Position numbers and translations under genes: made by a program. A stretch of 32,000 nt of DNA from Pirellula staleyi DSM 6068 (GTDB lineage: Bacteria > Planctomycetota > Planctomycetia > Pirellulales > Pirellulaceae), in NCBI GenBank assembly GCA_000025185.1, contig CP001848.1, positions 1,410,001 through 1,442,000 of the forward strand, in the 5' to 3' direction. Positions 10,491-26,420 of the stretch are shown here, in pieces (within the stretch, counting starts at the first letter, position 1; every line of letters begins with the position of its first letter). The notes below the pieces were generated by a model that was given only the letters and a program-made list of their open reading frames with translations, did no database searches and had not been told where the DNA came from.

Positions 10491-10517
10491 CCGTGATCAG
10501 CTGTCACCTGGAAATCT

Positions 10518-11629: not shown

Positions 11630-11850
11630 TGCTACTGACTGCGAGGGACCTCAACTCGCACTCTTGGCACGAGCCTAGAAACGGATTTTGCAATGAATGC
11701 GCACGAAAAAAGCCGCCCGAGACTCACAATCTCGAACGGCCAGCAGATGAAGCGCGAAGTTGAGAATGACAAAATCGCTTCAGTCTGTCAACTGTTTCGC
11801 AGCGATAATCTGGCAGTGTTCCATCCCTTCGATCTGCGGAGGGCCTTCTA

Positions 11851-12843
11851 ATGGAATACCCACGACGTCTATCGTTTTTCTCCAATCGATTTGCGGACGT
11901 TTTTCATAGCTCGGGGGCAATCGACGAGCTTGGAAGCACGGCAGCGCTGCTGCTCTGGGTTGTATCCAGTGCCGAGGACAAGACTAGGTATCACGGACCA
12001 GTCAAGTTCTGGGACAGCGACCTTAAACAGAAGGTAGGGTTGTCGAGCCAGCGCCGGTTCGCGGCTGTCCGAAAGCTGTTGGTTGATGCGGGGTGGTTGG
12101 TTTACTACCGATCCACACAACGAGCGATCGGCTCGTATTGGGTGGTGATACCCCAACGCTTCCAAGAGCCGATCGATTTTGAACCCACAGCAGAAACTAT
12201 CGAAGCGAATGGCGCGGAAAACTGCGCCAATGAATTCGAGAATGGCGCACAAAAACGCGCCAATGGTGCGAATGGCGCACTGAATGGCGCACTGAATGGC
12301 GCAGAAAAGTGCGCCCCTTCTATTCCTACTCCTACTCCTAATACCTCTCTCTCTAAAAAAGAGAGTGAGAGAGAGAGGGAAGCGCAACCATCTAAAGCGC
12401 ATCCCCCAGCAGAGGCGATCGACTTAGAGCTTGCCCAGCAATTCTTCAGCGACCTCCGGAAGCTCGATGAGCATCGAGCAGAGCCTGACTTCGAGACTTG
12501 GGCTCATGAGTTTGAGCAACTACGCAAGGCCGGTAAGCCGATCGCGCAGATCCGCGAAGTGATGGACTTCGTTGCAGGCCATGTGAAGCACTGGCGAACT
12601 CGAATCGAGAGCCCGCAATCACTTCGAGAAAACTGGGACAAGCTTGCCCTCGAGTGCGGAGCAGCCAAGAAGGCAAGGGCGGCAACCTGCTCTGAGATTC
12701 CCGATCTCACCGACGACGACGTAATCAAACCACCGCAACATCGCGGCCGCCGACTCTACGGCAATCGCCAGTTGCCCAGCATGGCCGGTGCTAATTACGA
12801 CCCCGACGCACACCTGAAGGATCCCGATCATGGCACCTTCTAG
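11851..12843 (+). CDS. Hypothetical mobile-element protein with internal NGA-type tandem repeat; function unknown (replication/DNA-binding role is speculation)
   Basis: 330-aa ORF with ordinary composition. The central tract ANGAENCANEFENGAQKRANGANGALNGALNGAEKCA is encoded by repeated AATGGCGCA units. The stop TAG (12841-12843) coincides with the IS target site. Confidence 0.65.
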   Translation: MEYPRRLSFFSNRFADVFHSSGAIDELGSTAALLLWVVSSAEDKTRYHGPVKFWDSDLKQKVGLSSQRRFAAVRKLLVDAGWLVYYRSTQRAIGSYWVVIPQRFQEPIDFEPTAETIEANGAENCANEFENGAQKRANGANGALNGALNGAEKCAPSIPTPTPNTSLSKKESEREREAQPSKAHPPAEAIDLELAQQFFSDLRKLDEHRAEPDFETWAHEFEQLRKAGKPIAQIREVMDFVAGHVKHWRTRIESPQSLRENWDKLALECGAAKKARAATCSEIPDLTDDDVIKPPQHRGRRLYGNRQLPSMAGANYDPDAHLKDPDHGTF

Positions 12844-13704
12844 AGCCTGTTATTGACTTATCTGCTTGCAATTGCTGTAGTTAGGGGATGAAACACACGA
12901 CAGGGAAGTCGTATCCCAGCGACGTAACGGATGCGGAGTGGGAATTCCTGCTCCCCTACTTAAGCCTCATGCGCGAGGATGTGTCGCAGCGTGCCTATTC
13001 ACTGCGCGACCAGTTTAACGCCATGCGCTACGTGGTGAAAACAGGAATCCAGTGGGACTTCCTGCCGCATGAAATGCCTCCGTGGCGGGCCGTCTATCAA
13101 CAAATGCGACGCTGGTTCGAAGCGGGAGTCTTTGAGGAAATTGCGCAAGACCTCAGGCTGATGGTGCGTCTTTTGGAAGGACGTGACGAACAGCCAACCG
13201 CTGTGATCATGGATGCTCGAACGCTGCAATCGACTCCTGAAAGTGGAGGCCGCGCGGGATACGACGGCGCGAAGAAAAAGAAGGGTTCGAAGGCCAATAT
13301 TGCCGTCGATACACTGGGAAATCTGCTGGCGGTTTACATCACTGCAGCCAATGAGCAAGACCGCGACCAAGTCGCCATCCTCTCGCAGAGAGTGCAAGAG
13401 GTGACGGGCAGCAACGTGGAGATAGCGTACGTCGATCAAGGCTATACGGGCGCCGCAGCAGCCGAGCAGGCTGAAGCATCCTCGATAAGATTACAAGTTA
13501 TAAAACATACCGAGACCAAGCGAGGCTTTGTCCTATTGCCACGCCGCTGGGTTGTTGAGCGCACCTTTGGTTGGCTGAGTCGCTTCCGCCGTCTCGCGCG
13601 TGATTATGAGAGACTCACCGTCACGCTCACCAACTTCCACTGGCTCGCCTTCCTCACCATACTCCTCGCAAAAATCTACAGACAAAGTCAATAACTGGCT
13701 CTAG
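12841..13704 (+). mobile_element. IS5-family insertion sequence (single-ORF DDE transposase) with terminal inverted repeats at a CTAG target
   Basis: The left end TAGAGCCTGTTATTGACTT (12841-12859) matches the reverse complement of the right end AAGTCAATAACTGGCTCTA (13685-13703) at 18 of 19 positions. The flanks read ..cttCTAG[..]CTAGcga, consistent with either a TA or a CTAG target duplication. The exact IS ends are therefore ambiguous by 2 nt. Confidence 0.85.
12888..13694 (+). CDS. IS5-family DDE transposase
   Basis: 268-aa ORF. The N-terminal region YPSDVTDAEWEFLLPYL...GIQWDFLPHEMPPWRAVYQQMRRWFEAGVFEEI is typical of IS4/IS5 transposase N-domains. DDE-region motifs are AVIMDARTLQS, ANIAVDTLGNLL, AYVDQGYTG and VVERTFGWLSRFRRLARDYERL. 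Confidence 0.9.
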   Translation: MKHTTGKSYPSDVTDAEWEFLLPYLSLMREDVSQRAYSLRDQFNAMRYVVKTGIQWDFLPHEMPPWRAVYQQMRRWFEAGVFEEIAQDLRLMVRLLEGRDEQPTAVIMDARTLQSTPESGGRAGYDGAKKKKGSKANIAVDTLGNLLAVYITAANEQDRDQVAILSQRVQEVTGSNVEIAYVDQGYTGAAAAEQAEASSIRLQVIKHTETKRGFVLLPRRWVVERTFGWLSRFRRLARDYERLTVTLTNFHWLAFLTILLAKIYRQSQ

Positions 13705-14170
13705 CGAGCACAGGACCAGCACCGGACCAGGTGCGGACCAGTCCGGTCCGATAGTCCGGTGGCCCAGGCCAAACCAACCGCCCGAGAAGCACCGGCTCGA
13801 GTTCGTCGCAGTCTTCTCCACCGAGGGTGCAGGCGACCGTGAGATGGCGATGATGCAACTAAAGCGATTCCTAAAGGCCGCACTTCGCCAGTATCGCTTC
13901 CGATGTGTCTCCGTTGAGGAATGGTGACGTCCAGGCCACTACAACGCGTCCTGGCGCAAATAAAGCGATTCTAGAGGCATCTCCCACGCACGGAAGTGAG
14001 CACGAGACATGACCTCCACCCATCGCCAGCCAAGCCGTCGCACAAGCTGGAACGAATCACCAAGCACGCCCATCGCTGAAACGATGCGACGGGTGTGCGT
14101 CCCCTTAAGCTCCCCCGCACTGAGTTGGCTTTGCCAATGAGGTGCTGGGGGGCCGGGGGGCAGGTTGCGC

Positions 14171-14314
14171 ATGCATCGCTGTCGTCCCGGTGATCGCGTC
14201 GTGGTGAGCAAGGTCAAGGTTCGCCCCCTCGTCCGAATCGGAAGCGACAAGCTGTACTACGTGGTGCTGACGGCGGGACGAAGAACGTCCATCAAGACCC
14301 GCGAGACGAACTAG
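14171..14314 (+). CDS. Small hypothetical protein (47 aa), below the ORF-track length cutoff
   Basis: Translated manually as MHRCRPGDRVVVSKVKVRPLVRIGSDKLYYVVLTAGRRTSIKTRETN. The composition is protein-like, with no other support. Confidence 0.3.
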   Translation: MHRCRPGDRVVVSKVKVRPLVRIGSDKLYYVVLTAGRRTSIKTRETN

Positions 14315-14604
14315 TCGGCGGAACAATGTTTTTCTCTTCTCTCCGCAGCGGGGCTCAGCGTTCGAGTGCCTTCCCTAAACAGCCATGAGAAGGCTTGCAA
14401 ATAACCGTCGTTCGATGACCTGGAGTAAGGAAGAATAGGGCCGATTCTGCATATTCCGAATTATGCAGAACTCTAGATAGTCCAGCCCAGTTTGCATCTT
14501 TCTCGTCTTTTGTTGACACCCCCTCCCGAAATAGGCAGAATGCAACCCGAAAGAAATATGCAGACTTCCGTATAGTAACTGTTCGCTGCTGTAAGAGGCA
14601 CTCG

Positions 14605-15294
14605 ATGGGCTACCTCGTCACGGCTCACGTCCTTCGCGAAAAGCCGGACCTCTCGCGGCTCGGCGAATTGCCGAAATCTGTGGGCTTTCGGGTCTACTTG
14701 CACCGCGCCGCGAACCTTTACCTGTTGGACACTTTTCGTCCCGCAAAGGTGCCGCAGTATCCATTTCAGACGTTGCTGCCAGCTGCCGATATTCCGCTGA
14801 AATTGCCTCCTGGCTTGGAAAGTCTCGAACGGATTTACTCGCGGTTCGGCCCGCTGAATCTCGCGAATGGCTTTAAGAAATCGTACATCAACGCGGCTCT
14901 GCTGCTCAATCGGCTCCTTCAATCGCCCGTTTTCTCGTTCGTGTCGAACGACGACGATCTCGATTTCACGTGTTCCGCGGTCGGCGGATCTCTCAACCGA
15001 CTGAAATGTCGGTGCGGCGACCTCGTGATCTCCTTCGACGGAAAAAGAGCCCAAATTGCGCCGCTCGTGCCAGACGAAGAAGACGAGGACCTTCTCACTG
15101 ATACCGCTGCTTTGAAATCCGCGATGCCCGAAGTGGAAGTTCTTGAGCGTCAGACTCCGTGGGACACGCAATTGCATTGCATCGCCATGGAAGAGCTGCA
15201 AGCGTTTGCTGGAATCAAAGAAATGATCTTGGGGTTGGGGAGCTTTGATCCGCCCGAAGACGAGTCCGAGTGGAGACTCGTCGCCTCGCGGTGA
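14605..15294 (+). CDS. Cassette ORF, hypothetical protein
   Basis: 229-aa ORF with ordinary composition. The longer antisense ORF (14473-15357) is R/E-rich shadow. The stop TGA at 15292-15294 lies 5 nt before attC1. Confidence 0.65.
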   Translation: MGYLVTAHVLREKPDLSRLGELPKSVGFRVYLHRAANLYLLDTFRPAKVPQYPFQTLLPAADIPLKLPPGLESLERIYSRFGPLNLANGFKKSYINAALLLNRLLQSPVFSFVSNDDDLDFTCSAVGGSLNRLKCRCGDLVISFDGKRAQIAPLVPDEEDEDLLTDTAALKSAMPEVEVLERQTPWDTQLHCIAMEELQAFAGIKEMILGLGSFDPPEDESEWRLVASR

Positions 15295-15298
15295 GTGC

Positions 15299-15388
15299 AC
15301 CGAACAATAACTTGCACCTGACCGCCGTTCGGCTGTGGTTTCACAATGGCTCATCACCAGCGGCGGCCGGTGATGCAGAACGTTATTT
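15299..15388 (+). repeat. attC-like site 1
   Basis: ACCGAAC...TTGCACCTGACCGCCG...CGGCGGCCGGTGATGCAGAACGTTATTT. The 3' arm is near-identical to attC2 and attC4. Confidence 0.7.
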
Positions 15389-15401
15389 GGCTAACAGCAA
15401 T

Positions 15402-16013
15402 ATGAAGCAGCGCCGTCTCGACAGGATTGCCAACGAATTGCTCGGTCCATGCCTGATTCCTAAACGATTTGTCGATTTCACGGGCGGGTTCTGTCGTGCG
15501 GTTCCCTCTGGTGCCATACACACAATTCTTATTGGCCATGATGTCCGCAGTTCTCACAGCTTCCAGATCCTTTGCGGATTAAATGCTACGGTGCTCTGCG
15601 ACGCACAAGCACCACAGCGTGCCGGTGTTTTCGGAGGACGACAACTGACAAGAGATGGTTGGAGTGCCAATTCAGGGCGGTGGCCCTGTCACGACGAGGA
15701 TACCACACGCGCTAGCTTTGTTGTAATTCAATCGCTCATTGATGACTTGGTGGAACCATGGTTTCAAACTTGCGCCTCTCTCGCATCTGTCGCGGACGCC
15801 ATGTCGGTCAATCAACATGGACTCCTTAAAGCGAGGCTCTATCATACCGCCGGTTGTACAGACGATGCAGTTGCTGCGGCTTATCAGTATCTTGAACGTC
15901 TCAGAAGCCCAGCCTCATGGGATGACCCGAAGTGGTTGATCACGGAGATCGAAACGGCAACAATCTTCGTGCGAGAAATCGAATTTTCAAGTCAAGGTGA
16001 GCGGGCCAAATAA
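15402..16013 (+). CDS. Cassette ORF, hypothetical protein (DUF4304-like pattern is a guess)
   Basis: The ORF track gives 15270-16013, but its first 44 codons translate attC1. The first ATG after the site is 15402 (MKQRRLDRIANELLGP...). The stop TAA at 16011-16013 lies inside the attC2 5' end. Confidence 0.65.
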   Translation: MKQRRLDRIANELLGPCLIPKRFVDFTGGFCRAVPSGAIHTILIGHDVRSSHSFQILCGLNATVLCDAQAPQRAGVFGGRQLTRDGWSANSGRWPCHDEDTTRASFVVIQSLIDDLVEPWFQTCASLASVADAMSVNQHGLLKARLYHTAGCTDDAVAAAYQYLERLRSPASWDDPKWLITEIETATIFVREIEFSSQGERAK

Positions 16014-16097
16014 CAGCCGCATGCACCGGACAGCCGTTCGGGTTTGGTTTCACAATGGCACATCACCAGCGGCGGCCGGTGATGCAGAACGTTAGGC
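16008..16097 (+). repeat. attC-like site 2
   Basis: AAATAAC...GCATGCACCGGACAGCCG...CGGCGGCCGGTGATGCAGAACGTTAGGC. The core is GTTAGGC at 16091-16097. Confidence 0.8.
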
Positions 16098-16098
16098 A

Positions 16099-17116
16099 GT
16101 GGAGGGCTCCCGGCGGATGATCTCCCACTCCCAATTCGGAAAGCTGCGGCTGGCCCAGTTCCGGCCCGATGCCGACATACGTGAGTTGGCCGGGTGGGAG
16201 TTCATGGACGAGCTTTGGGTCGGCGAGGCGGTCGGGTTTTCCGAGTGGCTGCGGCTGGAATCCGACTCTGCGGTTCTGCGGTCGCTCGCCTTGGATTTCT
16301 CCGAGTTCCCAGCGGATGCTGCGGAGGCGATCCTGCGAGCCATCGATCTGCCGGTGCGAGCCGGCATGTCTGCCCCAGAGTTGCGGGCGCTGTTTGGCGA
16401 ACCGGCCAAGGAGCATAGGTTCGTCTCGGATCGGGTCACCTACGATTTCGTGGGTCCCGGCTCACCGATTTATAGCGTGTCGTGTACCGTCCTCAACGAT
16501 GGTGGGCTGTCGTACCTCGTGGTCATGCGGCGGTGGCAAAACCACACCGAACCAAGTGCTGCAGCAGATAGCGGGTCACGTAGACTATTCAGGATTCATA
16601 GCTCACTCGGCCCAGCCGCTGCTGAGCTTCATTGTTCTTTCGCTGAAACTATGGTACTCCGACCAGGCATCACGAGCATTTTCGAATCTCACGAACGTGG
16701 CTCACTGCCTGAGTATTCGATTGCCGACTTCAGATGGCTGGTTTACACGCGTGGCCGCGTCGCAGGATTGGAGAGTTGCATCGATTGCAGCTGCCGGGAT
16801 CACCCCGAACTTTCACTTCGCAAAACTAGAATCGCCGCACAGATCCATTTTCATCCTCGGTCATTCGAACTATCCAATCGTCGCCTTTGCCAAACAAGTA
16901 AATGCTGTCGATCAACGTTTGCAATTCGTAGACGAATCAGAAATCTCAAGCGAAATCTCACGATTATTTCCCGACGTAGCAATCGCCATCGCAGCCGATC
17001 TCAATCGTTCCATCACAGAGGACGATCTTGCCCAACTCGCACCAATAGAGCTGAGACAGGTAAAATACTGGAAGCCCTGCACAATCGGCCAGCTTGCCTT
17101 CAACTGGTGGGACTGA
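16099..17116 (+). pseudogene. Cassette coding region read in two frames (probable frameshifted gene, or two overlapping ORFs)
   Basis: Frame 1 (16099/ATG 16117 to 17172) is protein-like only up to about 16540 (..SVSCTVLNDGGLSYLVVM) and then turns R/S-rich. Frame 2 (16169-17116) is junk at first and becomes protein-like from about 16540 (..QVLQQIAGHVDYSGFIAH...QLAFNWWD). The switch lies near the A-run ggcaaaacc. Confidence 0.5.
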
Positions 17117-17138
17117 TTGAATCGCCACAAAACCAGGC

Positions 17139-17217
17139 CATGAACCGGAGCGGCCGACAACGTGGGTTTTGATATCATGCCTTTTTTGCGGCGGCCCGGT
17201 TACGGCTGTCGTTAGGC
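17139..17217 (+). repeat. attC-like site 3 (79-bp class)
   Basis: CATGAACCGGAGCGGCCGACAACGTGGGTTTTGATATCATGCCTTTTTTGCGGCGGCCCGGTTACGGCTGTCGTTAGGC. It aligns along its whole length with attC8. Confidence 0.75.
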
Positions 17218-17222
17218 GACAC

Positions 17223-17519
17223 ATGGAAACCGTTCCGACAATCGATCGCGACAAACTGATTAACGACCTTCGAAGTCGTCTACCTAGTGCTGCGATTTCA
17301 ATCGAGACGATCAGTCTCGATTACGGATCGTGGGAGATCGCGGTCAAGCAAAACGGCCGTTGGGTGAACATTGCTTGGGGGCCGCTATCAGGTTTCGGCA
17401 CGACCGATTTGGATAACCTGCGTGAAGATAGCAACCCGTTCGGGTCGCACGACTGGCCAATGGAAAACGCAGAAGCCGCGATTGAGTTCGTCGTCCGCGT
17501 CGTCGGCCCCTGCCAGTGA
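17223..17519 (+). CDS. Cassette ORF, hypothetical small protein
   Basis: The ORF track gives 17169-17519, but its first 18 codons translate attC3. ATG 17223 (METVPTIDRDKL...) lies 6 nt after GTTAGGC. Confidence 0.6.
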   Translation: METVPTIDRDKLINDLRSRLPSAAISIETISLDYGSWEIAVKQNGRWVNIAWGPLSGFGTTDLDNLREDSNPFGSHDWPMENAEAAIEFVVRVVGPCQ

Positions 17520-17568
17520 ATGTTGGTCCGTTTGCCAATAAAACCATGATGCTGAGTGAGGCTCGAAC

Positions 17569-17886
17569 TTGAAATGGCTGGTACCGTGGCATCCGGTTGG
17601 TGAAGATTCCGGCCAAGTTGGCGGAATGGAGCAGGAGTTGAAACGCGAACTCTCCGCCGATCATCCCTTGTTCGGTTTGCCGGTTAAAGCGCTCGCTCGT
17701 CGCCAGGATTGCGATGATGTTCTGTTTGCCCTTCAAGATGGAACCGGGCGAGTCGCGGTTGTTCATCTGACATGGACGCGCAACCCACCGGAGCGTCCAC
17801 CATGGCCGCACACTACCTTGTTTCCCAGCCTCGAAAATTGGGCGGCCAAAGGCATGTATGCCGATACCGAGGAATTTTGTGAGTAG
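17569..17886 (+). CDS. Hypothetical small protein (second ORF of the same cassette)
   Basis: 105-aa ORF with a TTG start (alternative ATG at 17626, MEQELKRE). It has ordinary composition (..DDVLFALQDGTGRVAVVHLTWTRNPPE..). No attC separates it from the previous ORF. Confidence 0.55.
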   Translation: MKWLVPWHPVGEDSGQVGGMEQELKRELSADHPLFGLPVKALARRQDCDDVLFALQDGTGRVAVVHLTWTRNPPERPPWPHTTLFPSLENWAAKGMYADTEEFCE

Positions 17887-17906
17887 ACGCTGATCGATAA
17901 GTTTAC

Positions 17907-17997
17907 GGCGAACAACCGCATGCACCGGACCGCCGTTCCGGCTTTGGTTTCACCATGGCTCATCGCCAGCGGCGGCCGGTGATGCAGAACGTTAGGC
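17907..17997 (+). repeat. attC-like site 4
   Basis: GGCGAACAACCGCATGCACCGGACCGCCG...CGGCGGCCGGTGATGCAGAACGTTAGGC. The core is GTTAGGC at 17991-17997. Confidence 0.8.
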
Positions 17998-18008
17998 GGT
18001 TCGAATCC

Positions 18009-18206
18009 ATGCGGGCGAAGATCGCCGACGATCAGCGGACAACCATCGACGATGCGATTGTCGCCAATCTGAAGCTTCCTGCGATCCAGGAGATTCGTCA
18101 GTTGACGGGGGCAAGTTTGGCCGAACGCTTTGCCAAGCTTTGCTTAACCGTTCCAGAGCGTTTTGACTGCACAGAGGACGAATACTGGGCAGGCTTTTAC
18201 TCGTAA
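18009..18206 (+). CDS. Cassette ORF, hypothetical small protein
   Basis: The ORF track gives 17955-18206, but the upstream codons translate attC4. ATG 18009 (MRAKIADDQRTTIDD...) is the first start after the site. Confidence 0.55.
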   Translation: MRAKIADDQRTTIDDAIVANLKLPAIQEIRQLTGASLAERFAKLCLTVPERFDCTEDEYWAGFYS

Positions 18207-18212
18207 CTTTGC

Positions 18213-18297
18213 GTCTAACAAGTCGTTGCACCTGACCGCCGCAACGTCTAGCGTGATGGAGAGTCAATCGGGCGGCCGGTGATGCAGAAAGTTCGGC
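18213..18297 (+). repeat. attC-like site 5
   Basis: It starts with a perfect inverse core GTCTAAC (18213-18219), followed by AAGTCGTTGCACCTGACCGCCGC, and ends GGCGGCCGGTGATGCAGAAAGTTCGGC (18291-18297). Confidence 0.8.
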
Positions 18298-18374
18298 GAA
18301 TGTGCAACGATATCTTGACCAGGGCGTGTGCGGGGACGCGACCGTGAAGCTCAACATCGGATCGAAGAGGTGTC

Positions 18375-19052
18375 GTGGGAGAAATCCTGCTCCAGATAGG
18401 CACGCGCGAGCCACACGATCGGTGGCCTTATACGGTTCCGGTGACCCCGCTTTGTATAATCCGCATAACCAGCGACTGCAGTGGACGAGCCGCGCGTGCC
18501 TGGAAAGTTGCCATCGATTCTTGTGCGTTCTGCCCCGTACGCTGCTCGACACTGAGCGGCAGCGCTCGGCGACAGAGGCGATCCGTGGCTGAAGACCTCA
18601 AGCATTTGTGGACGACAGCAGCCCTTGCGGCAGCACTGCTGCACGGAACCCGCTTGCCAGGCGAGCCGGACGGACCACCACCTTGGCCGGTTTACTTGGA
18701 CCACACCTATCGTCGACAGACGGCTGCTCAGGTTTTGGGCGAACGAGCCGGCCACTCTGTTGATTGTTTGGGACCGCTTCTCTACGTAGCAGCTCACGAC
18801 GAGGACGTTCGGCTGCGGTGCTTGGAGCAAGTGTTCGCTTCTGGCTGGGTTGGCCTGGATGCGTTCTTGGTGGCCATGACGTTCGACGCCATGGATAGTG
18901 TTCGGCAACTCGCTTTGAAAAGGTTGGCCCTCCGCGAGTTCCCATCACTGCACGCTGTTGCTACTCGTCTGCTCAATGACCCGGACTCAGGCATACGGGA
19001 ACAAGCGGCGGGCATGCTCACCGGGGCGTCCGGGCCTCGTTGGCGGCTTTAG
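18375..19052 (+). CDS. HEAT-repeat-like protein (start uncertain; in-frame GTG 18585 is an alternative)
   Basis: The C-terminal 150 aa carry HEAT-like units AHDEDVRLRCLEQVF, AMDSVRQLALKRLA and LNDPDSGIREQAAGML. The N-terminal 70 codons of the ORF are not convincing. Confidence 0.55.
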   Translation: MGEILLQIGTREPHDRWPYTVPVTPLCIIRITSDCSGRAARAWKVAIDSCAFCPVRCSTLSGSARRQRRSVAEDLKHLWTTAALAAALLHGTRLPGEPDGPPPWPVYLDHTYRRQTAAQVLGERAGHSVDCLGPLLYVAAHDEDVRLRCLEQVFASGWVGLDAFLVAMTFDAMDSVRQLALKRLALREFPSLHAVATRLLNDPDSGIREQAAGMLTGASGPRWRL

Positions 19053-19059
19053 CACGCAC

Positions 19060-19156
19060 GCCGAACAAGTCGCTGCACCTGACGCGTCGGCTTATACTAG
19101 GGTTTTTGAATTCAATGTCTCGCCCGCCGCCGCGCAGGTGAGCTCAATCGTTCGTC
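19060..19156 (+). repeat. attC-like site 6
   Basis: The arms GCCGAACAAGTCGCTGCACCTGACGCGTCGGC and GCCGCCGCGCAGGTGAGCTCAATCGTTCGTC are complementary with bulged bases. Confidence 0.7.
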
Positions 19157-19188
19157 GATGATGCCGCCTTTAGCCACAAGGTATTGAG

Positions 19189-21015
19189 ATGCCCTCAAGG
19201 TACAGAACTCACTATACAATGGTATTGGTTTGCCTGTTCGGGGTGCTTGGGGTTGCGGCCGAACGCTACCGTCAATATGTGAGCGGGAACGTAGGCGATG
19301 TAACCATTCAGCGAACCGATGCCGGAATCACTTTGAGTATCGATGGAGAATCGTTTACGGATTTGCATCGTCCCGTGACGTTGCGCGCGGGGTCACATCG
19401 ATTACACGCGACATGGCAGAGGTTTGAGGTCAAAGCAACGATCAATGTGAAGCGTGGCGACAAAGCACCGCTGAACCGGGTTGTATTTTCACTGCAAGAT
19501 GGCCAGTTGCAGGTCAAAGTCAATTCGCGATTGGTTGACGTTGCTCCACGACCAGAGCCCGAAGTTTCCGCCATCCAAACCGCATCAGGAAGGTTTTGGC
19601 GTACTTCCGAAAACGGTGAAATTACGACACGAGACTTTTTTGACGTTTCTGGCGTCCAACTGTTTACCATCCATTGGCTGAGGCCCGATCGAAGTGAAGC
19701 GTTTATTCAATCGAGTGATGGTCGATTCGTGACCAACACGTCCGGCCCGCTTGATGAGTCGCCGGGCGTGTTGGCGCTGTCTGACCACGACGACCGGCCA
19801 TGCCTATTTAAAATCGATCGCATAAATCACGACGGATCATGGATCCACTTTGCCACCGGGCGGCATTTTGTGGATGTTGACGCTGATACAAATCGGGTGC
19901 GAACAACTTGCTACGAGCAGTTTGCGACGCCGCACTTCCTAAAGAAGGTCACTGTTGCATCCGATGATATCAAGCCTGTGGCGTTGCCCGCCGGCATCAC
20001 GGCAGTTCAAGCGGCTTCAAACGCTCCATCCGTTCGTCGGTTCAAAGGACACACGAATGTGATTCGCGCGGTCGTGTTCACGCCGGACGGTAAACACGTT
20101 ATTACGGGAAGTTCGGATGGAACCATTCGATTCTGGAACCTACAGAGCGGAAAGCAGGTCGATATGGTCCGAACGCGTCGCCCAGCTTTATCGCTTGCAA
20201 TTTCGAGTGATGGCGAATCACTGGCCTGCGGTATGACGGACGCTGTGGTCAAATTCTGGAGGTTGGAAAAACACCCAACGATTTCCCATCATAGTGAACG
20301 TATTCTGTCACGTGACTACAAAGGCGATGTGCTGGCGATTGCGTTTTCACCTGACGGCACGAAAGTCGCAGCTGGCGGTAACCGGCAGCAACACTCGCGA
20401 ATTTGGAATCTACTTGAGCCCGGCGAACGTTGTAAGTCCTCCACGATTAATGGACCTGTAACGTCACTGGTATGGTCTCGTTCCGGAGAACGCGTATTGT
20501 TGTGCGAAGAGGATTCACGGTCGCTACGTTGGTTTCCAAATAGCACTAAGAACGCCGTGATGCGACCTTCCGATCAAAGGTCTGGCAAGCTGCTTATTCC
20601 CTCCGATGATGGCCCATTTGTAGTTGCTGGGGGTGAAGTGCTGGACGCAGAAACTTTGGAAGTCATCCACACGTTTCAGCAGCGGCGCGGTGTTCGGGCT
20701 GTGTCAGCGCAGTTGTTGGATAGAAAGAACCTGCTTGTGACTGCAGACGTGATCGTCAATGCAATCCACGAACTAGCGCCCGATGAATTCGTGACTGCAT
20801 GGGATTTGAACACAGGCCTGCCACTTGCGGTTCTGCGGGACCATGCCGGGCAAACAGGGAATGTTGCGATATCGCCAAGCGGTGACTACGTCGCGTATGG
20901 CAACGGCGTCAACGATACCAACGCGACTTACACCCAACAGCCCACCGGCGACTACGACCTGCGTGTATGGAAAATAACTAGCGACGAACCAACGGATGAA
21001 CGCGAGCCGGAATAG
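19189..21015 (+). CDS. Membrane-anchored WD40-repeat protein
   Basis: 608-aa ORF. It has an N-terminal hydrophobic segment (MVLVCLFGVLGVAA) and WD40 units GHTNVIRAVVFTPDGKHVITGSSDGTIRFWNL, ALSLAISSDGESLACGMTDAVVKFWRL and GDVLAIAFSPDGTKVAAGG..SRIWNL. Confidence 0.85.
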   Translation: MPSRYRTHYTMVLVCLFGVLGVAAERYRQYVSGNVGDVTIQRTDAGITLSIDGESFTDLHRPVTLRAGSHRLHATWQRFEVKATINVKRGDKAPLNRVVFSLQDGQLQVKVNSRLVDVAPRPEPEVSAIQTASGRFWRTSENGEITTRDFFDVSGVQLFTIHWLRPDRSEAFIQSSDGRFVTNTSGPLDESPGVLALSDHDDRPCLFKIDRINHDGSWIHFATGRHFVDVDADTNRVRTTCYEQFATPHFLKKVTVASDDIKPVALPAGITAVQAASNAPSVRRFKGHTNVIRAVVFTPDGKHVITGSSDGTIRFWNLQSGKQVDMVRTRRPALSLAISSDGESLACGMTDAVVKFWRLEKHPTISHHSERILSRDYKGDVLAIAFSPDGTKVAAGGNRQQHSRIWNLLEPGERCKSSTINGPVTSLVWSRSGERVLLCEEDSRSLRWFPNSTKNAVMRPSDQRSGKLLIPSDDGPFVVAGGEVLDAETLEVIHTFQQRRGVRAVSAQLLDRKNLLVTADVIVNAIHELAPDEFVTAWDLNTGLPLAVLRDHAGQTGNVAISPSGDYVAYGNGVNDTNATYTQQPTGDYDLRVWKITSDEPTDEREPE

Positions 21016-21037
21016 ACCGGCTGGCTTGCTTCGCTCG

Positions 21038-21077
21038 GCAACGTCAACTCCCGGCCGCGTTATCCGAAACGTTCTGC
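21038..21077 (+). repeat. Possible degenerate or short attC-like hairpin
   Basis: GCAACGTCAACTCCCGGCCGCGTTATCCGAAACGTTCTGC is an imperfect palindrome ending GTTCTGC. The next ORF starts 10 nt later. At 40 bp it is shorter than typical attC sites. Confidence 0.3.
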
Positions 21078-21087
21078 ACCAAGCTGA

Positions 21088-21540
21088 ATGAACACTTCCA
21101 TCCTGAATACGTTTCTCTCTGACCAACGGAGAGCGAAGCGACTGGTATCTGACAAGCTTGGGATACCAGAAAACATCCGAGCATTGGATTGGGCAGTTCA
21201 CTCCTGTGAGCTTCGAAAATCGTATGATGTCTGCCCGTTTGCGAACGTGTTTCGAATACATGGCTACGGACTTGAAATCCAAGTCGACGACTTGCATGTC
21301 GACTTCGATTACTCCGAACAGGGATTGGCTGACGGTTTCGATTCGTGGCGCATTTTTGTCTACATTATGGCTGGCCGATTCGACAACAGAGGCACTGACA
21401 AGCACATTTCCGATCGCGTTGACGGGTGGTTCGATGAACTGATTCAGCTTGGACGAATCGAGAAACGGGACAACTTGTACTACCTCAAGCACCAACCTGC
21501 GACCAGTGCAGAAAAAGCGGTGAACGGGAACTGCCGATGA
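21088..21540 (+). CDS. Cassette ORF, hypothetical protein
   Basis: 150-aa ORF with ordinary composition. Its last 22 nt overlap the attC8 5' arm. Confidence 0.6.
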   Translation: MNTSILNTFLSDQRRAKRLVSDKLGIPENIRALDWAVHSCELRKSYDVCPFANVFRIHGYGLEIQVDDLHVDFDYSEQGLADGFDSWRIFVYIMAGRFDNRGTDKHISDRVDGWFDELIQLGRIEKRDNLYYLKHQPATSAEKAVNGNCR

Positions 21541-21597
21541 CGCGGGTTTTGAAATCATAGTTTTTTTGCGGCGGCTCCGTTACCGCTGTCGTTATGC
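21519..21597 (+). repeat. attC-like site 8 (79-bp class)
   Basis: GGTGAACGGGAACTGCCGATGACGCGGGTTTTGAAATCATAGTTTTTTTGCGGCGGCTCCGTTACCGCTGTCGTTATGC is collinear with attC3, with most positions identical by eye. Confidence 0.75.
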
Positions 21598-21606
21598 ATC
21601 TAAACC

Positions 21607-22146
21607 ATGCCGCATCAAAAACCCGAAGACGAGATTTATCGACTATCCACACTCCGCGGTGTCACAGACCTGGACGAATGGCAACGTCAACTCGAAAACT
21701 CCGAGGAACGAATTCGGGTTCAACTTCACAGTTCGGTCGATGACGCTTGGCGCGCCTGCTTGCCAACGTGGATCGAAGTCGGCCGCGTCAAAGACCTTTC
21801 CCGCTCCGTCCGCGTTCCAAAGTACTGGCCGTCGTATGCCAATCAGCTTGGCCGCGCATTCGCTGAAATCTATTGTGATGATTACCAATTCGTGATTGAC
21901 ATGGTCGGCACATTGCCGCCTGACTCCTATGAGTACCTTTGTGCCTATGATCTCCTCGAACTGATTGTGTCCGAGTTCTATGGCTGTGAACTCCCAGTTC
22001 CGAAACAATTATTCGCAATTGATCTGCCGGCGCCGTCGGTCGTCCGTGTAGAGACAGAAGATGATCATCGCTACAGTGAATTGGTTTCAATAGGCGAGTT
22101 CCTGCACTTGTCGTGCCTAATCGAGTATGGCGACGACGATGCATAA
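21607..22146 (+). CDS. Cassette ORF, hypothetical acidic protein
   Basis: 179-aa ORF. The ATG lies 10 nt after attC8. The stop TAA at 22144-22146 lies inside GCATAAC of attC9. Confidence 0.65.
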   Translation: MPHQKPEDEIYRLSTLRGVTDLDEWQRQLENSEERIRVQLHSSVDDAWRACLPTWIEVGRVKDLSRSVRVPKYWPSYANQLGRAFAEIYCDDYQFVIDMVGTLPPDSYEYLCAYDLLELIVSEFYGCELPVPKQLFAIDLPAPSVVRVETEDDHRYSELVSIGEFLHLSCLIEYGDDDA

Positions 22147-22230
22147 CAATCGGTTCAACCGGAGCGGCGGATCGCGCGGTTTCCGAAAGCAAAGTTCACC
22201 GTCCGCTCTCTTTCATCCTCAATGTTGACT
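22141..22230 (+). repeat. attC-like site 9
   Basis: GCATAACAATCGGTTCAACCGGAGCGGCGG...CACCGTCCGCTCTC...AATGTTGACT. The GGAGCGGCGG and CCGTCCGCTC arms are complementary. Confidence 0.6.
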
Positions 22231-22530
22231 TGCCCATCCTCGGCTAGCTAACATTCACAACTGAACTTGGGCCTCGGCCCCACCAGCCCGTCAATGATCG
22301 CGGGCACCCTTACAGCCTTTGCTGCTGTGAGCGTGCTCGCGTTTTTTATGCGCTCGCAGCTCCGGCAGCTTCACTCTTTGGAGCGTTGCCGTGTTCAATC
22401 GACTCCAGAGGTTGAGTGTTCTCGCGAATCACACTGTTCTTTTGCAGGTCGGATTGACCGCCAACGAGCTGGTGCAGCGAGATTCCTCAAGGAACGCCGC
22501 ACCCCAATAGCCAATAGGAGGCTTTCAATC

Positions 22531-22967
22531 ATGGCAGTTGCCGCACTACTTCCACTCCTCGAAGCGATTGGACCACTTCTCAGCAGTGGCATTGCTGTCG
22601 GATCGACTGCTGCTGCCACAGGAACCGCCGCCGGCTCGTCTGCAGCCGCAGCAGTCTGGTTGCGCAGTTCACCGGACAAGTTCAGGGTTTTGGTTCGGCC
22701 GCCGAGCTCGGGGCTGGGGTGCAGCGCGCGAGCGACATCGCTGGCGCTATTGCGGCCCTCAAAAACTCGATCGGTGAAGTCGAAACCCGTCAGAGTGACG
22801 CAGCGGCGAGCGCTCGCTACACCGATCCGGCGACCGGCATGGAGGTCGACAATTCGCAAAGTGCCGAGCATCTCGAGAAGCTCTCAGCGCTCGAGAAAGA
22901 GCGTGCGGCGATGAAGCAGCAAGAACGCTCGATGCGGGCCCAGTCGGGCAATTTATCTCGAACATGA
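22531..22967 (+). pseudogene. Small protein gene, apparently frameshifted (alternative: an intact 82-aa ORF from GTG 22719)
   Basis: ATG 22531 has AGGAGG 8 nt upstream and opens MAVAALLPLLEAIGPLLSSGIAVGSTAAATGTAAGSSAAAA. That frame then turns R-rich. A different frame continues protein-like (..VAQFTGQVQGFGSAAELGAGVQRASDIAGAIAALKNSIGEV..EKLSALEKERAAMKQQ) to the stop at 22965-22967. Confidence 0.4.
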
Positions 22968-23866
22968 TTGCGGGACCGCGTCGCGAGATCACACAACTAA
23001 TCATTCAGCACCGCGTCTATCTGTTGACGTATGTCAAAGAGATTTTCCAGCAAGGTTGGCCGGCCACTGATTCCGAAGTTGCAACCGAGGCGGCGCTCGC
23101 GAATCATATTGACCGCATGGCCGGCGAACTGGAGGGCGTCTTGAAGCGGCTCAGGCGTCGCTTACTGTGGGCATTCCGCGAAGTCCAACGATTGAACAAG
23201 GTGCGCGAGCAGCAGGCGACGCTCGAACAAGAAGGCGAAGCTCATTTCAGGCGCTGCGATCGGCTGATCAAGAAGCTCAAGGGCGTCCAATCCAAACGGC
23301 GTCGCGAGGCGGAAGGTGTTGATGACATCAATACCTATGGCGTTCTGGCCGCAGAAGGCTACTTGCCCGGCTACGGTCTCGATACGGGTTCCGTGGTTGC
23401 GATGGCTGAGGTTCTCCGCTTGGCGAAGGTGTCGGACCGGGTTTACATGGTGGCCGAGTGGCCGCAGGCCAACGCTGGCCACTATCAATTGGAACTGAAT
23501 TGGCCCGGAGGGAGCGAGCAACGGGTAGTCACCATCGCGCCCAAGAAGATCAGCGCGAGTTGGATGTCGTTTTCTGCAAACGAGTCGGTCACAGATTCTT
23601 TAAGTGCCGGTAGTTCAAGTGTTTGCGAAGCGCAAGCAGGCGAGATTGCGCTCGGAGAGTGTTGGGCACAGGGAGGATGTTCCGCTCCCTCAATCGCCAA
23701 ACACCGAAGAGTCCATTCGTGTGGCCCAGCCTGTGTTGCTCGCTGGGTCCAAGGCAAGGATTCGCGTCATTTGCTGAGCACCAAGACCTGCGACTTCCAC
23801 ACATGGGCCGGGATCTCAATCCGTCGCGCAATCCCATCGAAGGTGCCGGAGCTAAACACCAGTTGA
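22964..23866 (+). CDS. Hypothetical protein; the N-terminal half resembles the region preceding the Zn-binding DUF1998/MrfA-type domain of defence helicases (tentative); probably a gene remnant
   Basis: It has an ATGA overlap with the upstream ORF. The motif INTYGVLAAEGYLPGYGLDTGSV resembles the xLAxxGFLPxYGFP motif recalled from DUF1998-containing helicase partners. The C-terminal 130 aa (S/C/A/R-rich) look like out-of-frame or decayed sequence. Confidence 0.4.
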   Translation: MIAGPRREITQLIIQHRVYLLTYVKEIFQQGWPATDSEVATEAALANHIDRMAGELEGVLKRLRRRLLWAFREVQRLNKVREQQATLEQEGEAHFRRCDRLIKKLKGVQSKRRREAEGVDDINTYGVLAAEGYLPGYGLDTGSVVAMAEVLRLAKVSDRVYMVAEWPQANAGHYQLELNWPGGSEQRVVTIAPKKISASWMSFSANESVTDSLSAGSSSVCEAQAGEIALGECWAQGGCSAPSIAKHRRVHSCGPACVARWVQGKDSRHLLSTKTCDFHTWAGISIRRAIPSKVPELNTS

Positions 23867-24150
23867 GACGCCTTAGCTTCAGGATTGCGACCAGGTGTGC
23901 TTGCCTTGAACGTCAATGTTCTTGGGAGTGTAACACCTTGTCCAGCGAAGACATGAGCCAGTCTTCGGTAAAGAGTTCCTCGCACATCACCGCGTAACGC
24001 ACACGCCAGGTTTTACCCGCCGCGAGTGTCCTGTCACGAACAAGCTGGATTGTGAGACTAATTACGATTCACAATCGCCGGCCCCGTCCGCTGTTTGCGA
24101 CCCCTTGACAGTCCGCGGCCATAAAGAGGTTAGGCATTCGGCTTGGCGCG

Positions 24151-25611
24151 TTAGTGAGCTGTTCCGATCTTCGGCTTCAGGTTGGCGCCGTCCTCGTCCG
24201 AAAGAAGTCCCTCTTGGTTGGGCAAGAGCGGGACGGCAGATTTCATGGCCTCAGACACAATCCAGCCGACCGCCAACGGCTTGGCGGCGTCCTTGCTGGC
24301 AGTTTCGATGCGGGCCTGCATCGTCGCGACTTTGTCCGGATGCGCAGCAGCAATGTTGTTCTTCTCGTAGGGGTCTTCGGCCAGGTTGTAGAGGTCAACG
24401 CTGCTGGGCAACATCGTGCGCCAGATGAGCTTCCAGTCACCCTGCCGTAGGCCGGCGCGAAACGGCTCGATGCTGTAGAAGAATTCCGTGCGTGGCGACG
24501 GTTTTCCTTCGGCGATGGTGTCCCAGACGTTCGTACCATCGAGCGGCTTGCACTTGGCGATGGAGGCGCCGGCCAGCGCAGCGAATGTGGGATAAAGGTC
24601 CACGGCGTGGATCATGCCGTCCACGGTCTGAGCCTTGATCTTGCCCGGCCAGTTGGCCAGCGCACACACGCGACTGCCGCCTTCGAAGAGCGAGCCTTTG
24701 CCGTTGCGATAGGGACCATTATCGCACGGGAGCACGACCTTCGACATGTCCGCCATCTGACCGGCGAACATCTTGTCCTTCGTGCCGCCGTTGTCGCTAT
24801 GGAAAAAGATGAGCGTGTTTTCGCGGAGCCCCTTCTGGTCGAGCGCGGCGACGACTTTGCCGATGTTTTCATCAAGGCAGTCTACCATGGCAGCGTAAGT
24901 GCGGCGTGTCGGCTCGGCGATGTTCAAATACTTGGTGATGTATTCCTTCGGCGCCTGATACGGTGTGTGCGGGGCGTTGAAGGTGAGGTAGAGGTAGAAC
25001 GGCTTCTTGCCATCCTGGCCGTGGATGTATTTCACCGCGTCGTCGCCAATGAGCGTGGTGGTGTAGCCTTGTTCGTGGACGGGCTTGTTATCGCGGAACC
25101 AGTCAAGCACGCCGTGTTCGTCGTGAGTGAAGTAATCCAGCTCACCGATCATCGCGCCGTATTGGTAATCGAAACCGCGTTGCTTGGGCCAGTACTTCTG
25201 GTCCGCGTGGCCGAGATGCCATTTGCCGATGATAGCGGTCTTGTAGCCGGCGTCGCCCAGGCATTGGGGCATTAGATACTCACTCGTGTCGAGTCCGTAA
25301 CCGGCAGCGGTGGGAATGACGATTGTCTGCAGGCCGTAGCGGTAGGGAAAGCGGCCGGTCATCAGACACGCACGTGTGGGTGTGCACATGTTCTGCACGT
25401 AGAACTGCGAGAACTTCGCCCCGCCCTTTGCGAGCGCGTCTATGTTCGGCGTCTTAATTTCAGTGCAGCCGTTGAAGCCGACGTCCTTCCAGCCGAGATC
25501 GTCGGCCACGATGTGGACGATGTTTGGTTGCCTGTCTGCCGCTTGCGAAGCCACCGCGGTGAACGCGACGAGTAGCACGGCGGCCCATAGTTCGAGTTTG
25601 GTTAGGTTCAT
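24151..25611 (-). CDS. Secreted arylsulfatase-family sulfatase
   Basis: 486-aa ORF. It has a signal peptide (MNLTKLELWAAVLLVAFTAVASQA), the metal site IVADDLGWKDVG, the formylglycine signature CTPTRACLMTGR, and HSDNGG. Confidence 0.92.
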   Translation of the reverse strand: MNLTKLELWAAVLLVAFTAVASQAADRQPNIVHIVADDLGWKDVGFNGCTEIKTPNIDALAKGGAKFSQFYVQNMCTPTRACLMTGRFPYRYGLQTIVIPTAAGYGLDTSEYLMPQCLGDAGYKTAIIGKWHLGHADQKYWPKQRGFDYQYGAMIGELDYFTHDEHGVLDWFRDNKPVHEQGYTTTLIGDDAVKYIHGQDGKKPFYLYLTFNAPHTPYQAPKEYITKYLNIAEPTRRTYAAMVDCLDENIGKVVAALDQKGLRENTLIFFHSDNGGTKDKMFAGQMADMSKVVLPCDNGPYRNGKGSLFEGGSRVCALANWPGKIKAQTVDGMIHAVDLYPTFAALAGASIAKCKPLDGTNVWDTIAEGKPSPRTEFFYSIEPFRAGLRQGDWKLIWRTMLPSSVDLYNLAEDPYEKNNIAAAHPDKVATMQARIETASKDAAKPLAVGWIVSEAMKSAVPLLPNQEGLLSDEDGANLKPKIGTAH

Positions 25612-26375: not shown

Positions 26376-26420
26376 GCGATGGTCTTTTCCACCGCCTTTT
26401 CCTGTTACAGTCGACGGCGG

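Follow-up and report, generated by a model that had tools for sequence, protein, structure and literature searches.

Clusters of attC sites lacking an integron-integrase have been defined as CALINs (Cury et al. 2016, PMC4889954), and attC sites are known to have two extrahelical bases, at positions 16 and 23, on either side of a 6-bp stem (PMC5027507). Integrons and CALINs have already been reported in Planctomycetes, and an attC profile is available for this group (Ghaly et al. 2021, PMC8352920). We analysed a 32-kb window, meaning the whole stretch of DNA considered here, of the chromosome of Pirellula staleyi DSM 6068, in which an earlier note had proposed an integron-type cassette array. 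This analysis indicates that the locus is very probably a Planctomycetes-type integron gene-cassette array and, by definition, a CALIN, since a tyrosine recombinase was not detectable anywhere in the 32 kb. It is an element of known kind and an expected feature.

Extent and boundaries of the cassette array

The array spans positions 14581-22230, entirely on the + strand, and contains nine intact attC sites of 85-97 nt, together with a decayed one and a terminal one without a 3' arm. These sites delimit 11 co-oriented cassettes, mostly with one ORF each. A G|TT junction at 14581 marks the beginning of the array and precedes the ATG at 14605 by 24 nt; ORFs start 5-32 nt 3' of each R', in line with the short spacing described previously. 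Most cassette proteins belong to no known family, as is usual for integron cassettes. The features are as follows.

14445-14587, + strand: attI-like head of the array, with a palindrome, a promoter-like element, direct repeats and a core
14582-15382, + strand: cassette 1; ORF 14605-15294, 229 aa, no family
15299-15388, + strand: attC S1; R'' ACCGAAC, R' GTTATTT; 83 bits (training site)
15383-16091, + strand: cassette 2; ORF 15402-16013, 203 aa, stop TAA inside R''
16008-16097, + strand: attC S2; R'' AAATAAC, the exact complement of S1 R'; R' GTTAGGC
16092-16634, + strand: cassette 3; ORF from 16117 without an in-frame stop before its own attC; the conserved protein is residues 7-143 of a 357-aa ORF
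16546-16640, + strand: attC S2b; R'' ACCGAAC, R' GTTCTTT; 5' arm slightly decayed relative to the L030 copy
16635-17211, + strand: cassette 4; gene 16651-17116, with a frameshift due to an additional G at 16749 when compared with a 97.5%-identical metagenomic relative
17127-17217, + strand: attC S3; R'' ACAAAAC, R' GTTAGGC; published profile E 1.3e-5
17212-17991, + strand: cassette 5; ORFs 17223-17519 (98 aa) and 17569-17886 (105 aa), not separated by an attC
17907-17997, + strand: attC S4; R'' GGCGAAC, R' GTTAGGC; z = -2.9; arms pair perfectly save for two bulges
17992-18291, + strand: cassette 6; ORF 18009-18206, 65 aa
18213-18297, + strand: attC S5; R'' GTCTAAC, R' GTTCGGC
18463-18570, + strand: decayed attC S5b; R'' GCATAAC, geometry kept, R' changed to GCTCGGC; 13.8 bits, E 0.14
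18571-19150, + strand: cassette 8; ORF 18585-19052, 155 aa, HEAT repeats
19060-19156, + strand: attC S6; R'' GCCGAAC, R' GTTCGTC; published profile E 8.8e-6; z = -3.3; unpaired central spacers of 5 and 6 nt
19151-21071, + strand: cassette 9; ORF 19189-21015, 608 aa, WD40 beta-propeller, 3' end overlapping the attC
20983-21077, + strand: attC S7; R'' GACGAAC, the exact complement of S6 R'; R' GTTCTGC
21072-21591, + strand: cassette 10; ORF 21088-21540, 150 aa, DUF6896, identical to Psta_1158
21507-21597, + strand: attC S8; R'' degenerate GCAGAAA (expected GCAGAAC), R' GTTATGC
21592-22223, + strand: cassette 11; ORF 21607-22146, 179 aa, stop inside R''
22141-22230, + strand: terminal attC S9; R'' GCATAAC, the exact complement of S8 R'; 5' arm intact, 3' arm lost, R'-like GTTGACT at 22224; 19.6 bits (not a training site), published profile E 4e-4

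The proposed array is real, although its count of 8-9 attC-like sites becomes nine intact sites plus two degenerate ones. The earlier note had missed the intact site S2b at 16546-16640, which splits an apparent 357-aa ORF (16099-17172) into two cassettes, as well as the decayed site at 18463-18570. The first site has its R'' (ACCGAAC) at 15299 rather than in the AATAAC further in, and intact sites measure 85-97 nt where the note had given 79-97 bp for the palindromes. The cores that it quoted are in place (GTCTAAC at 18213; GTTAGGC at 16091, 17211 and 17991), as are the stop codons placed within cores (TAA 16011 in AAATAAC 16008-16014; TAA 22144 in GCATAAC 22141-22147), and the ORF starts at 15270, 17169 and 17955 are indeed artefacts of reading through attC.

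All checks suggested in the note that were carried out here favoured its interpretation. Four independent lines of evidence bear out the array: the chain of R'' and R' sequences, the published attC profile, our own covariance model and homology breakpoints at G|TT. The R'' of each site complements the R' of the preceding site, with matches at 32 of 40 variable positions, versus only 17 of 36 with its own R'; permutations averaged 19.4 +/- 2.9, and 4 of 200,000 reached 32. The same rule holds in another array, L023. Five other contexts share homology with the DUF6896 cassette from exactly 21071/21072 onward (the T after the G of R'), with unrelated DNA upstream. This cassette occurs in L020, L021/22 and L023-27, and also at an attC-less site in L019. 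Cassettes 3, 4 and the second ORF of cassette 5 were likewise found elsewhere: homologues of cassette 3 are cassettes in L029 and L031, and a 44%-identical homologue of the second ORF of cassette 5 is a cassette in L023. The 97.5%-identical relative L030 has a different cassette at position 3.

Geometry and folding of the attC sites

All sites have the canonical attC geometry: xxxxAAC is followed after 8 nt by an unpaired base at position 16 and, beyond a 6-bp stem, by an unpaired A at position 23, and a variable loop and GTTxxxx complete the site. A scan of the window for xxxxAAC-N8-[G/C]-N6-A with a complementary 3' arm and GTT returned 8 sites on the + strand, all within 15299-21077, and none on the - strand or outside that interval; simulated 32-kb sequences yielded 0.35 hits per window, both strands together, so that chance would not produce this pattern. 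The two extrahelical positions with the 6-bp stem between them were found in all nine intact sites, and AAC and GTT occur together in eight of the nine, S8 having AAA, while the RYYY/RRRY core flanks are loosely kept (e.g., ACCGAAC and GTTCTTT). Covariation was evident, with both sides changed in 11 of 23 pairs and paired cells at 75% versus 29-44% after sliding partners. Two sub-types can be distinguished in the window, S1/S2/S4/S5 and S3/S8.

When bottom strands (the - strand of the window) were folded to minimum energy, 7 of 10 sites formed the attC hairpin, and the arm that faces AAC showed two single-base bulges; the bottom strand of S9 formed no hairpin. Hairpin stability was unremarkable (z from +0.01 to -3.3), only S4 and S6 scoring about -2.9 or lower. 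The extrahelical bases noticed previously can be seen directly by pairing GCATGCACCGGACCGCCG with CGGCGGCCGGTGATGC, which leaves exactly two bases unpaired (G and A). The extrahelical base 16 of the bottom strand is C (G in one site), versus the usual G in studied attC.

The published Planctomycetes attC profile (PMC8352920 supplement), rebuilt as the sequence-only filter of the covariance model, matched inside the array only and on the + strand only. Five sites reached E <= 0.002 and eight reached E < 10, while S1 and S2b fell below the reporting threshold of this sequence-only filter; shuffled windows reached at most 9.2 bits. Our own covariance model (R1) finds attC beside cassette homologues in unrelated metagenomic arrays (L020, L023-27 and L029-31), and these R1-positive arrays hold homologues of four cassettes of the window.

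The array head, the integrase and the origin of the array

Immediately upstream of the first cassette is an attI-like head. It includes a palindrome, TTCTGCAT-N10-ATGCAGAA, at 14445-14470, a promoter-like TTGACA-17-CAGAAT at 14513-14541, two direct repeats, GGCAGAATG (14534) and ATATGCAGAC (14556), and a core, TTCCGTATAGTAACTG|TTCGCT, that places the first cassette junction at G14581|T14582. TTCGCT agrees with the S1 R'' ACCGAAC in 3 of the 4 variable positions. The 78 nt preceding the junction can be aligned to the sequence in front of a DUF6896 cassette that occupies the first position in a Pirellula MAG (L021), with a score of 11 versus -13.2 +/- 4.5 in shuffles. From these sequence features, we infer that the head may function as an attI, although a similar element also lies inside the L023 array, where a true attI should not be.

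No integrase was found to accompany this head. Pfam searches detected no Phage_integrase among the large ORFs of the window, in six frames of 9100-14650 (both strands) or in any of the three frames on the + strand of 22150-24160, and a tblastn search of the entire 32 kb with IntI1 gave nothing better than E = 9.9, in agreement with the earlier observation that the window lacks a tyrosine recombinase. Any intI would have to lie at a distance of more than 14.5 kb on the upstream side of the array or more than 9.8 kb on the downstream side, and current mobility would need IntI in trans. The cassettes would be, or would formerly have been, cut out and inserted by an integron integrase that acts on folded bottom strands, with recombination at G|TT within R'. 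Each cassette would thus carry the final six bases of the preceding R' as well as its own complementary R''. The bottom strand of attC folds into a hairpin in which the R box is paired, the central spacer is unpaired and two bases are extrahelical, and transcription of the array would probably start from the promoter-like element in the head.

One alternative, to which we give tentative credence, is that the array forms the distal part of a complete sedentary chromosomal integron, with an intI located beyond the 32-kb window or detached from the array by rearrangement. This reading differs from the best explanation only in the origin of the array and in whether the genome still has a cognate integrase. 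Retention of an attI-like head with a promoter points to a true array start, and to an intI that was lost or separated rather than to an off-target insertion. Directly upstream are an IS at 12840-13704, with 20-nt inverted repeats, and an HTH_17 (excisionase-like) gene; insertion of this IS and of an excisionase-like/330-aa module at 11399-12843 would be an example of such a separation. The origin of CALINs by rearrangement splitting is recognised (PMC4889954), and turnover of the array appears to be recent, given the single cassette that differs in L030. However, six-frame translation of the 5.5 kb upstream revealed no integrase remnant, the window contains no IntI1-like segment, and the homologous head in L021 likewise has no integrase within 5.5 kb upstream.

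It appears unlikely that the array is a fossil, with no functional integron integrase left in the genome and sites decaying neutrally. Three sites are damaged, with AAC changed to AAA in the R'' of S8, GTT changed to GCT in the R' of S5b and the 3' arm missing from S9; together with the frameshifted gene of cassette 4, they indicate that part of the array is decaying. S5b is probably inactive, so cassettes 7 and 8 would be fused. In addition, S3 shows eight differences from L030 in 91 nt, versus about 1.5% elsewhere. Against this reading, eight sites keep AAC, GTT and the bulge geometry, and the near-identical relative carries a different cassette at one position.

A broader proposal, which we consider doubtful, is that Pirellula arrays are headed by a conserved platform and served by an integrase that is routinely unlinked and acts in trans, with C at position 16 of the attC bottom strand. 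The platform would have no adjacent integrase and would combine two direct repeats with a sigma-70-like promoter and a TTCCGTATA-N5-TG|TT core. Both P. staleyi and an independent Pirellula MAG have it, and it bears inverted copies of the ATGCAGAA motif, which forms the L'/spacer of the local attC.

Finally, the boundary and breakpoint data lead us to reject a reading of these intergenic imperfect palindromes of a GC-rich genome as generic REP/MITE repeats or transcription terminators unrelated to integrons: the two terminator-like matches, within S2 and S4, occur at chance frequency and no T tracts follow the stems, while the strictly uniform orientation, the invariance of AAC/GTT, the fixed bulge positions, the R''-R' chain, the G|TT breakpoints, the published profile match, the lack of further copies elsewhere in the window or on its - strand, and a 19-mer with only single, evidently chance, matches in 185,579 reference genomes all argue against a dispersed repeat.

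Comparison with known integron systems

This locus provides a well-delimited, base-resolved array from a cultured planctomycete for a class of elements studied mostly in Proteobacteria, with naturally occurring site decay, a frameshift in one cassette gene and the exchange of a cassette between near-identical strains. It also offers a usable set of substrates for asking how attC sites with C rather than G as the first extrahelical base are read by a non-proteobacterial integrase, and whether an integrase in trans serves those CALINs that retain an intact attI-like head.

As in the CALINs of Cury et al. (PMC4889954), the cassettes are mostly of unknown function and an IS is nearby, as is often so for integrons; the P. 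staleyi array differs in keeping an apparent head, with an attI-like junction and promoter, that lies outside the CALIN definition. The consensus of the Planctomycetes attC model of Ghaly et al. (PMC8352920), GCCTAAC-AAnGC-GTT-G-CAsC-GG-A...CTGAAC-N6-GTTAGGC, matches the sites of the window, including the unpaired top-strand G 16 and A 23 and a length of about 90-100 nt, whereas the presence of two sub-types and the sub-threshold scores of S1 and S2b with the sequence-only filter set the window apart. Similarly, the sites resemble attCaadA7 and VCR (Nivina et al. 2016, PMC5027507) in their inverse AAC/GTT cores, unpaired central spacers of 4-6 nt, extrahelical positions flanking the 6-bp stem, bulges opposite the bottom-strand AAC and G|TT crossover, but differ in their bottom-strand base 16 and in the looseness of RYYY/RRRY. 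The head does not resemble attI1 of class 1 integrons in sequence and has no adjacent intI, and its attI role is putative; nevertheless, like attI1, which combines a simple site with DR1/DR2 and has Pc nearby, it carries a promoter-like element as well as two direct repeats in the roughly 70 nt that precede the AAC-N-G|TT crossover point heading the array.

Architecture of the attC sites

Between 14.6 and 22.2 kb, the window contains imperfect palindromes interleaved with small ORFs, all on the + strand, as described in an earlier note that counted 8–9 attC-like sites. The alternation and the attC nature of the sites held up, and the count was revised to nine intact and two damaged sites. All nine intact sites share a single layout, which was parsed by hand first and by script second. 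It opens with a 7-nt box ending in AAC (R''), followed by 8 nt that make up a 4-nt spacer and a 4-bp stem. Next come an unpaired G, a stem of 6 bp and an unpaired A, ahead of another stem with a variable loop. The complementary arm lacks the two extra bases and leads through a 5–6 nt spacer into a 7-nt box starting with GTT (R').

attC sites of the window array
S1, 15299-15388, + strand, intact
S2, 16008-16097, + strand, intact
S2b, 16546-16640, + strand, intact
S3, 17127-17217, + strand, intact
S4, 17907-17997, + strand, intact
S5, 18213-18297, + strand, intact
S5b, 18463-18570, + strand, damaged: geometry kept, R' is GCTCGGC instead of GTT...
S6, 19060-19156, + strand, intact
S7, 20983-21077, + strand, intact
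S8, 21507-21597, + strand, intact
S9, 22141-22230, + strand, damaged: 5' arm good, matching 3' arm absent

The inverse core of S8 is also changed (AAC>AAA), and S5b (GTT>GCT), S8 and S9 should be poor or dead substrates. An inverted orientation of the sites relative to the ORFs was rejected: the 3' arm of S1 seemed longer only with a wrong R'' (AATAAC), and taking ACCGAAC at 15299 as R'' makes the S1 geometry canonical. Weak attC-model matches at 14251-14334 and 13710-13760 (10–12 bits) lack a pairing arm and were not counted, and a match at 24475-24513 is a 39-nt fragment within a sulfatase gene.

A scan of the window for this geometry returned 8 matches, all of them on the + strand and inside the array; simulating the window with a first-order Markov model put the chance level at 0.35 matches per 32 kb for both strands (maximum 2). 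In the nine-site alignment, standard pairs occupied 75% of the pair cells, versus 29–44% when partners were slid by 1–3 columns. Changes on both sides were found in 11 of 23 pairs, and none of 500 shuffles reached the observed covariation score. Folding of the bottom strands, which the earlier note had proposed, produced, for S2, S2b, S3, S4, S6, S7 and S8, a hairpin whose 3' arm carries two bulges of one base each. Folding z-scores ranged from +0.01 to −3.3, so that thermodynamic stability alone is weak, unimpressive evidence and the case for attC sites rests on conserved architecture, not energy. Rfam searched at gathering thresholds gave no match; to our knowledge, the attC family is absent from Rfam. 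The 19-mer GGCGGCCGGTGATGCAGAA had 18 single matches across reference-genome contigs, in unrelated taxa, and the one match inspected (locus L013) lies within a coding region.

The last attC of the array has a counterpart in comparison locus L023 (3456-3520), where the final site is likewise truncated or degenerate in its 3' arm. Both last sites have R'' GCATAAC and still obey the cassette boundary rule, and the 5' arm of the L023 site is partly duplicated (GCGTTGCACCC twice). About 100 nt past the last attC of the window, the + strand carries a terminator-like hairpin and then TTTTTT (22326-22347); no other terminator-like site close to the end of the array has a clean run of T, but such matches overall occur at chance frequency.

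Cassette boundaries and cassettes shared with other arrays

Integron crossover falls between the G and the TT of R'. Each cassette therefore opens with six bases from the end of the preceding R' and closes with a complementary R'' of its own. Comparing each R'' with the R' of the preceding site, at four variable bases per core, we found agreement at 32 of 40 positions, exact for S2, S6, S7, S8 and S9; agreement between R'' and the R' of its own site was 17 of 36. Permuting the partners gave 19.4 ± 2.9, and 32 was reached in 4 of 200,000 permutations. The array thus shows the integron-type cassette boundary signature. The same rule puts the array start at G14581|TTCGCT; compared with the S1 R'', 3 of 4 positions agree.

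The DUF6896 cassette protein (21088-21540) and Psta_1158 of Pirellula staleyi DSM 6068 are identical, which places the window in that strain; homologues of 65–85% identity lie on metagenomic contigs. A covariance model (R1) built from the window sites alone found attC sites of 21–57 bits in L020 and L023–27, on the gene strand and between genes. DNA homology of the DUF6896 cassette to L023, L020, L021/22 and L019 starts at 21071/21072, the T after the G of the S7 R', and the upstream DNA is unrelated in each context; in L023, homology stops at the final base of S8. Three more cassettes have homologues that serve as cassettes in other arrays: cassette 3 in L029 and L031, cassette 4 in L030, and the second ORF of cassette 5 in L023. 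A metagenome scan with the DUF6896 alignment gave one short locus.

On the 104-kb contig L019, the 65%-identical DUF6896 gene (9984-10400) has no detectable attC. Its homology to the window begins at the same TTCTGC, after AAG|TT, and the gene is possibly an old cassette insertion with a decayed attC. L029 (ENA ERZ22147080 ctg74857c) carries a cassette block of ~2,971–2,984 bp in at least 4 tandem copies, with 7–8 high-scoring attC sites, a PEP-CTERM protein gene and the cassette 3 homologue; this repetition might reflect a real tandem amplification of cassettes or, alternatively, misassembly of a circular or repeated molecule.

A near-identical relative, L030, matches the window at 97.5% identity from 16544 to the end of L030. 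Upstream of the S2b-type attC its gene differs from that of the window, so that near-identical strains differ by one cassette. The transition between diverged and identical sequence lies within the attC, suggesting homologous exchange between similar attC sites and not a clean G|TT event. S3 (17127-17217, L030 1392-1482) holds 8 of the 27 differences between window and L030, a divergence of ~9% versus ~1.5% elsewhere; given this concentration, attC sites either evolve faster than the flanking genes or are exchanged separately from them. One S3 difference (CCAT>CCGT, opposite ACGG) restores a pair in L030.

Relative to L030, the window has an extra G at 16749 that frameshifts the cassette 4 gene. 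The gene may be a genuine pseudogene, or one of the two records may contain a sequencing error. This frameshift, together with the lack of a stop codon in cassette 3, produces the overlapping long ORFs 16099-17172 and 16169-17116; homologues of the former span residues 7–143 only. GC3 frame plots were too flat for frame calling.

Absence of an integrase and the array head

The earlier note saw no integrase in the 32 kb, and each of our searches agreed. Pfam found no tyrosine recombinase among the large ORFs of the window, nor did six-frame Pfam searches of 9100-14650 on both strands and 22150-24160 on the + strand (E up to 1), nor tblastn with the integron integrase IntI1 over all 32 kb (E up to 50). 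A further search with IntI1 returned class 1-like integrases only and is not informative on intI in P. staleyi. With no detectable integrase, the locus is a CALIN, a cluster of attC sites lacking an integron-integrase, as defined previously (PMC4889954; PMC8618304).

Features flanking the array in the window
68-1780, CorA-like membrane protein (PADLOC CorA, E 8e-132)
1810-3309, Cas10
3291-5291, Csm4/Cas5-IIID plus Cas7 fusion
5288-9106, multi-Cas7 fusion, 1272 aa; also matches the type III-E gRAMP model
12840-13704, IS5/IS427-like element, 865 bp, with 20-nt inverted repeats (95% complementary) and an intact 268-aa DDE transposase
24151-25611, − strand, sulfatase
25803-26375, tyrosine-phosphatase-like ORF
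27655-28215, ECF sigma factor
28143-29774, FecR/Laminin_G anti-sigma-like protein
29771-31801, + strand, sulfatase

The genes at 68-9106 form a CRISPR-Cas effector operon resembling type III-D. Neither a CRISPR array nor, among the ORFs and frames searched, a match to Cas6, Cas1 or Cas2 was found. Directly after the cas genes lie 2.3 kb without a convincing ORF (9106-11400), T-rich on the + strand (AT skew to −0.14), with two copies of a 33-nt repeat (10058 and 10424, spacing 366) sharing GAAACCCGTAGATG; this region gave no recognisable CRISPR array and no six-frame Pfam match. Downstream of the array, the backbone at 24151-31801 is typical of planctomycetes.

Between the CRISPR-Cas genes and the array, 11399-12843 encodes a 76-aa HTH_17 (excisionase-like) ORF followed by a 330-aa ORF without a family and with a ANGALNGALNGA repeat, and may be an integrative-element remnant. 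The stop codon of the 330-aa ORF sits in the left end (CTAG) of the IS. In view of the IS and these two ORFs upstream, it is plausible but unproven that a rearrangement parted the array from its intI.

The 78 nt before the first cassette junction contain a promoter-like TTGACA-17-CAGAAT, two direct repeats and a core TTCCGTATAGTAACTG|TT. When compared with the region before the first-position DUF6896 cassette of a Pirellula MAG (L021), this head aligned significantly, scoring 11 versus −13.2 ± 4.5 in shuffles; no integrase was found within 5.5 kb upstream of the aligned region on that contig. Three copies of the heptamer ATGCAGA, which belongs to the 3' arm in sites of the S1/S2/S4/S5 type, occur in the head region, two of them as an inverted pair at 14445-14470. 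We infer that the head region may be an attI-like platform carrying a cassette promoter. A related promoter element, TTGACA-17-TACTAT, also lies within the L023 array, which is not expected of a true attI.

The near-palindrome at 14445-14470, TTCTGCAT-N10-ATGCAGAA, comprises two inverted copies of the L'-plus-spacer motif of the S1/S2/S4/S5 type. It resembles a site bound by a recombinase in double-stranded form, yet 110 nt separate it from the cassette junction downstream. In L023, two copies of a promoter-like element (1425-1480 and 2630-2686; TTGACG/TTGACA, 17 nt, TACTAT, then ACGGACG...TAAACA) run exactly up to a cassette start, one at the array head and one inside, where the junction is A|TTCTGC in place of G|TT. 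The alternative that the attI-like region serves as attC for a cassette without an ORF (R'' GCAGAAC at 14465, R' GTTCGCT at 14581) was rejected, as it has no complementary arm and no model match.

Comparison with known integrons

The earlier note had equated the unpaired bases with the extrahelical bases of attC, and the layout agrees with that published for attC sites (PMC5027507): the bases at positions 16 and 23/24 are extrahelical and separated by a 6-bp stem, and they bulge from the AAC-bearing arm in the top strand and from the opposite arm in the bottom strand, here with central spacers of 5–6 nt. This placement makes the + strand the top strand, in agreement with ORF orientation. Extrahelical position 16 of the bottom strand is usually G in attC, whereas here it is C (top-strand G). 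An unpaired top-strand G at position 16 is also present in the attC model that Ghaly et al. 2021 built for Planctomycetes (PMC8352920), so this departure is not peculiar to the locus. The consensus of that model is GCCUAAC-AAuGC-GUU-G-CAgC-GG-A...CUGAaC-UucGuC-GUUAGGC (PMC8352920, supplementary file 3).

The sequence-only filter of this model was reconstructed as a profile and run against the window with nhmmer at maximum sensitivity. Every match at E <10 lay on the + strand within the array: S6 (8.8e-6), S3 (1.3e-5), S5 and S9 (4e-4 each), S4 (2e-3), S8 (0.03), S2 (0.1) and S7 (4.8). The best score in 50 shuffled windows was 9.2 bits.

The analysis shows the structure of the sites, their strand asymmetry, the boundary signature and the sharing of cassettes at G|TT breakpoints, and the array is well supported. 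By analogy with established integron biology, IntI would bind the folded bottom strands, cleave in the AAC of the bottom-strand R' and exchange one strand; replication would then resolve the product, excised circles would re-insert at attI, and cassettes would be read from an upstream promoter. Any present activity in P. staleyi would require an integrase. The sole part that might reward follow-up is the attI-like head, which lacks one. Our literature search found no paper linking Pirellula staleyi with integrons. Planctomycetes are known to carry integrons and CALINs (PMC4889954, PMC2426708, PMC8618304) and have an attC model of their own (PMC8352920); the array therefore adds to a recognised type of element.
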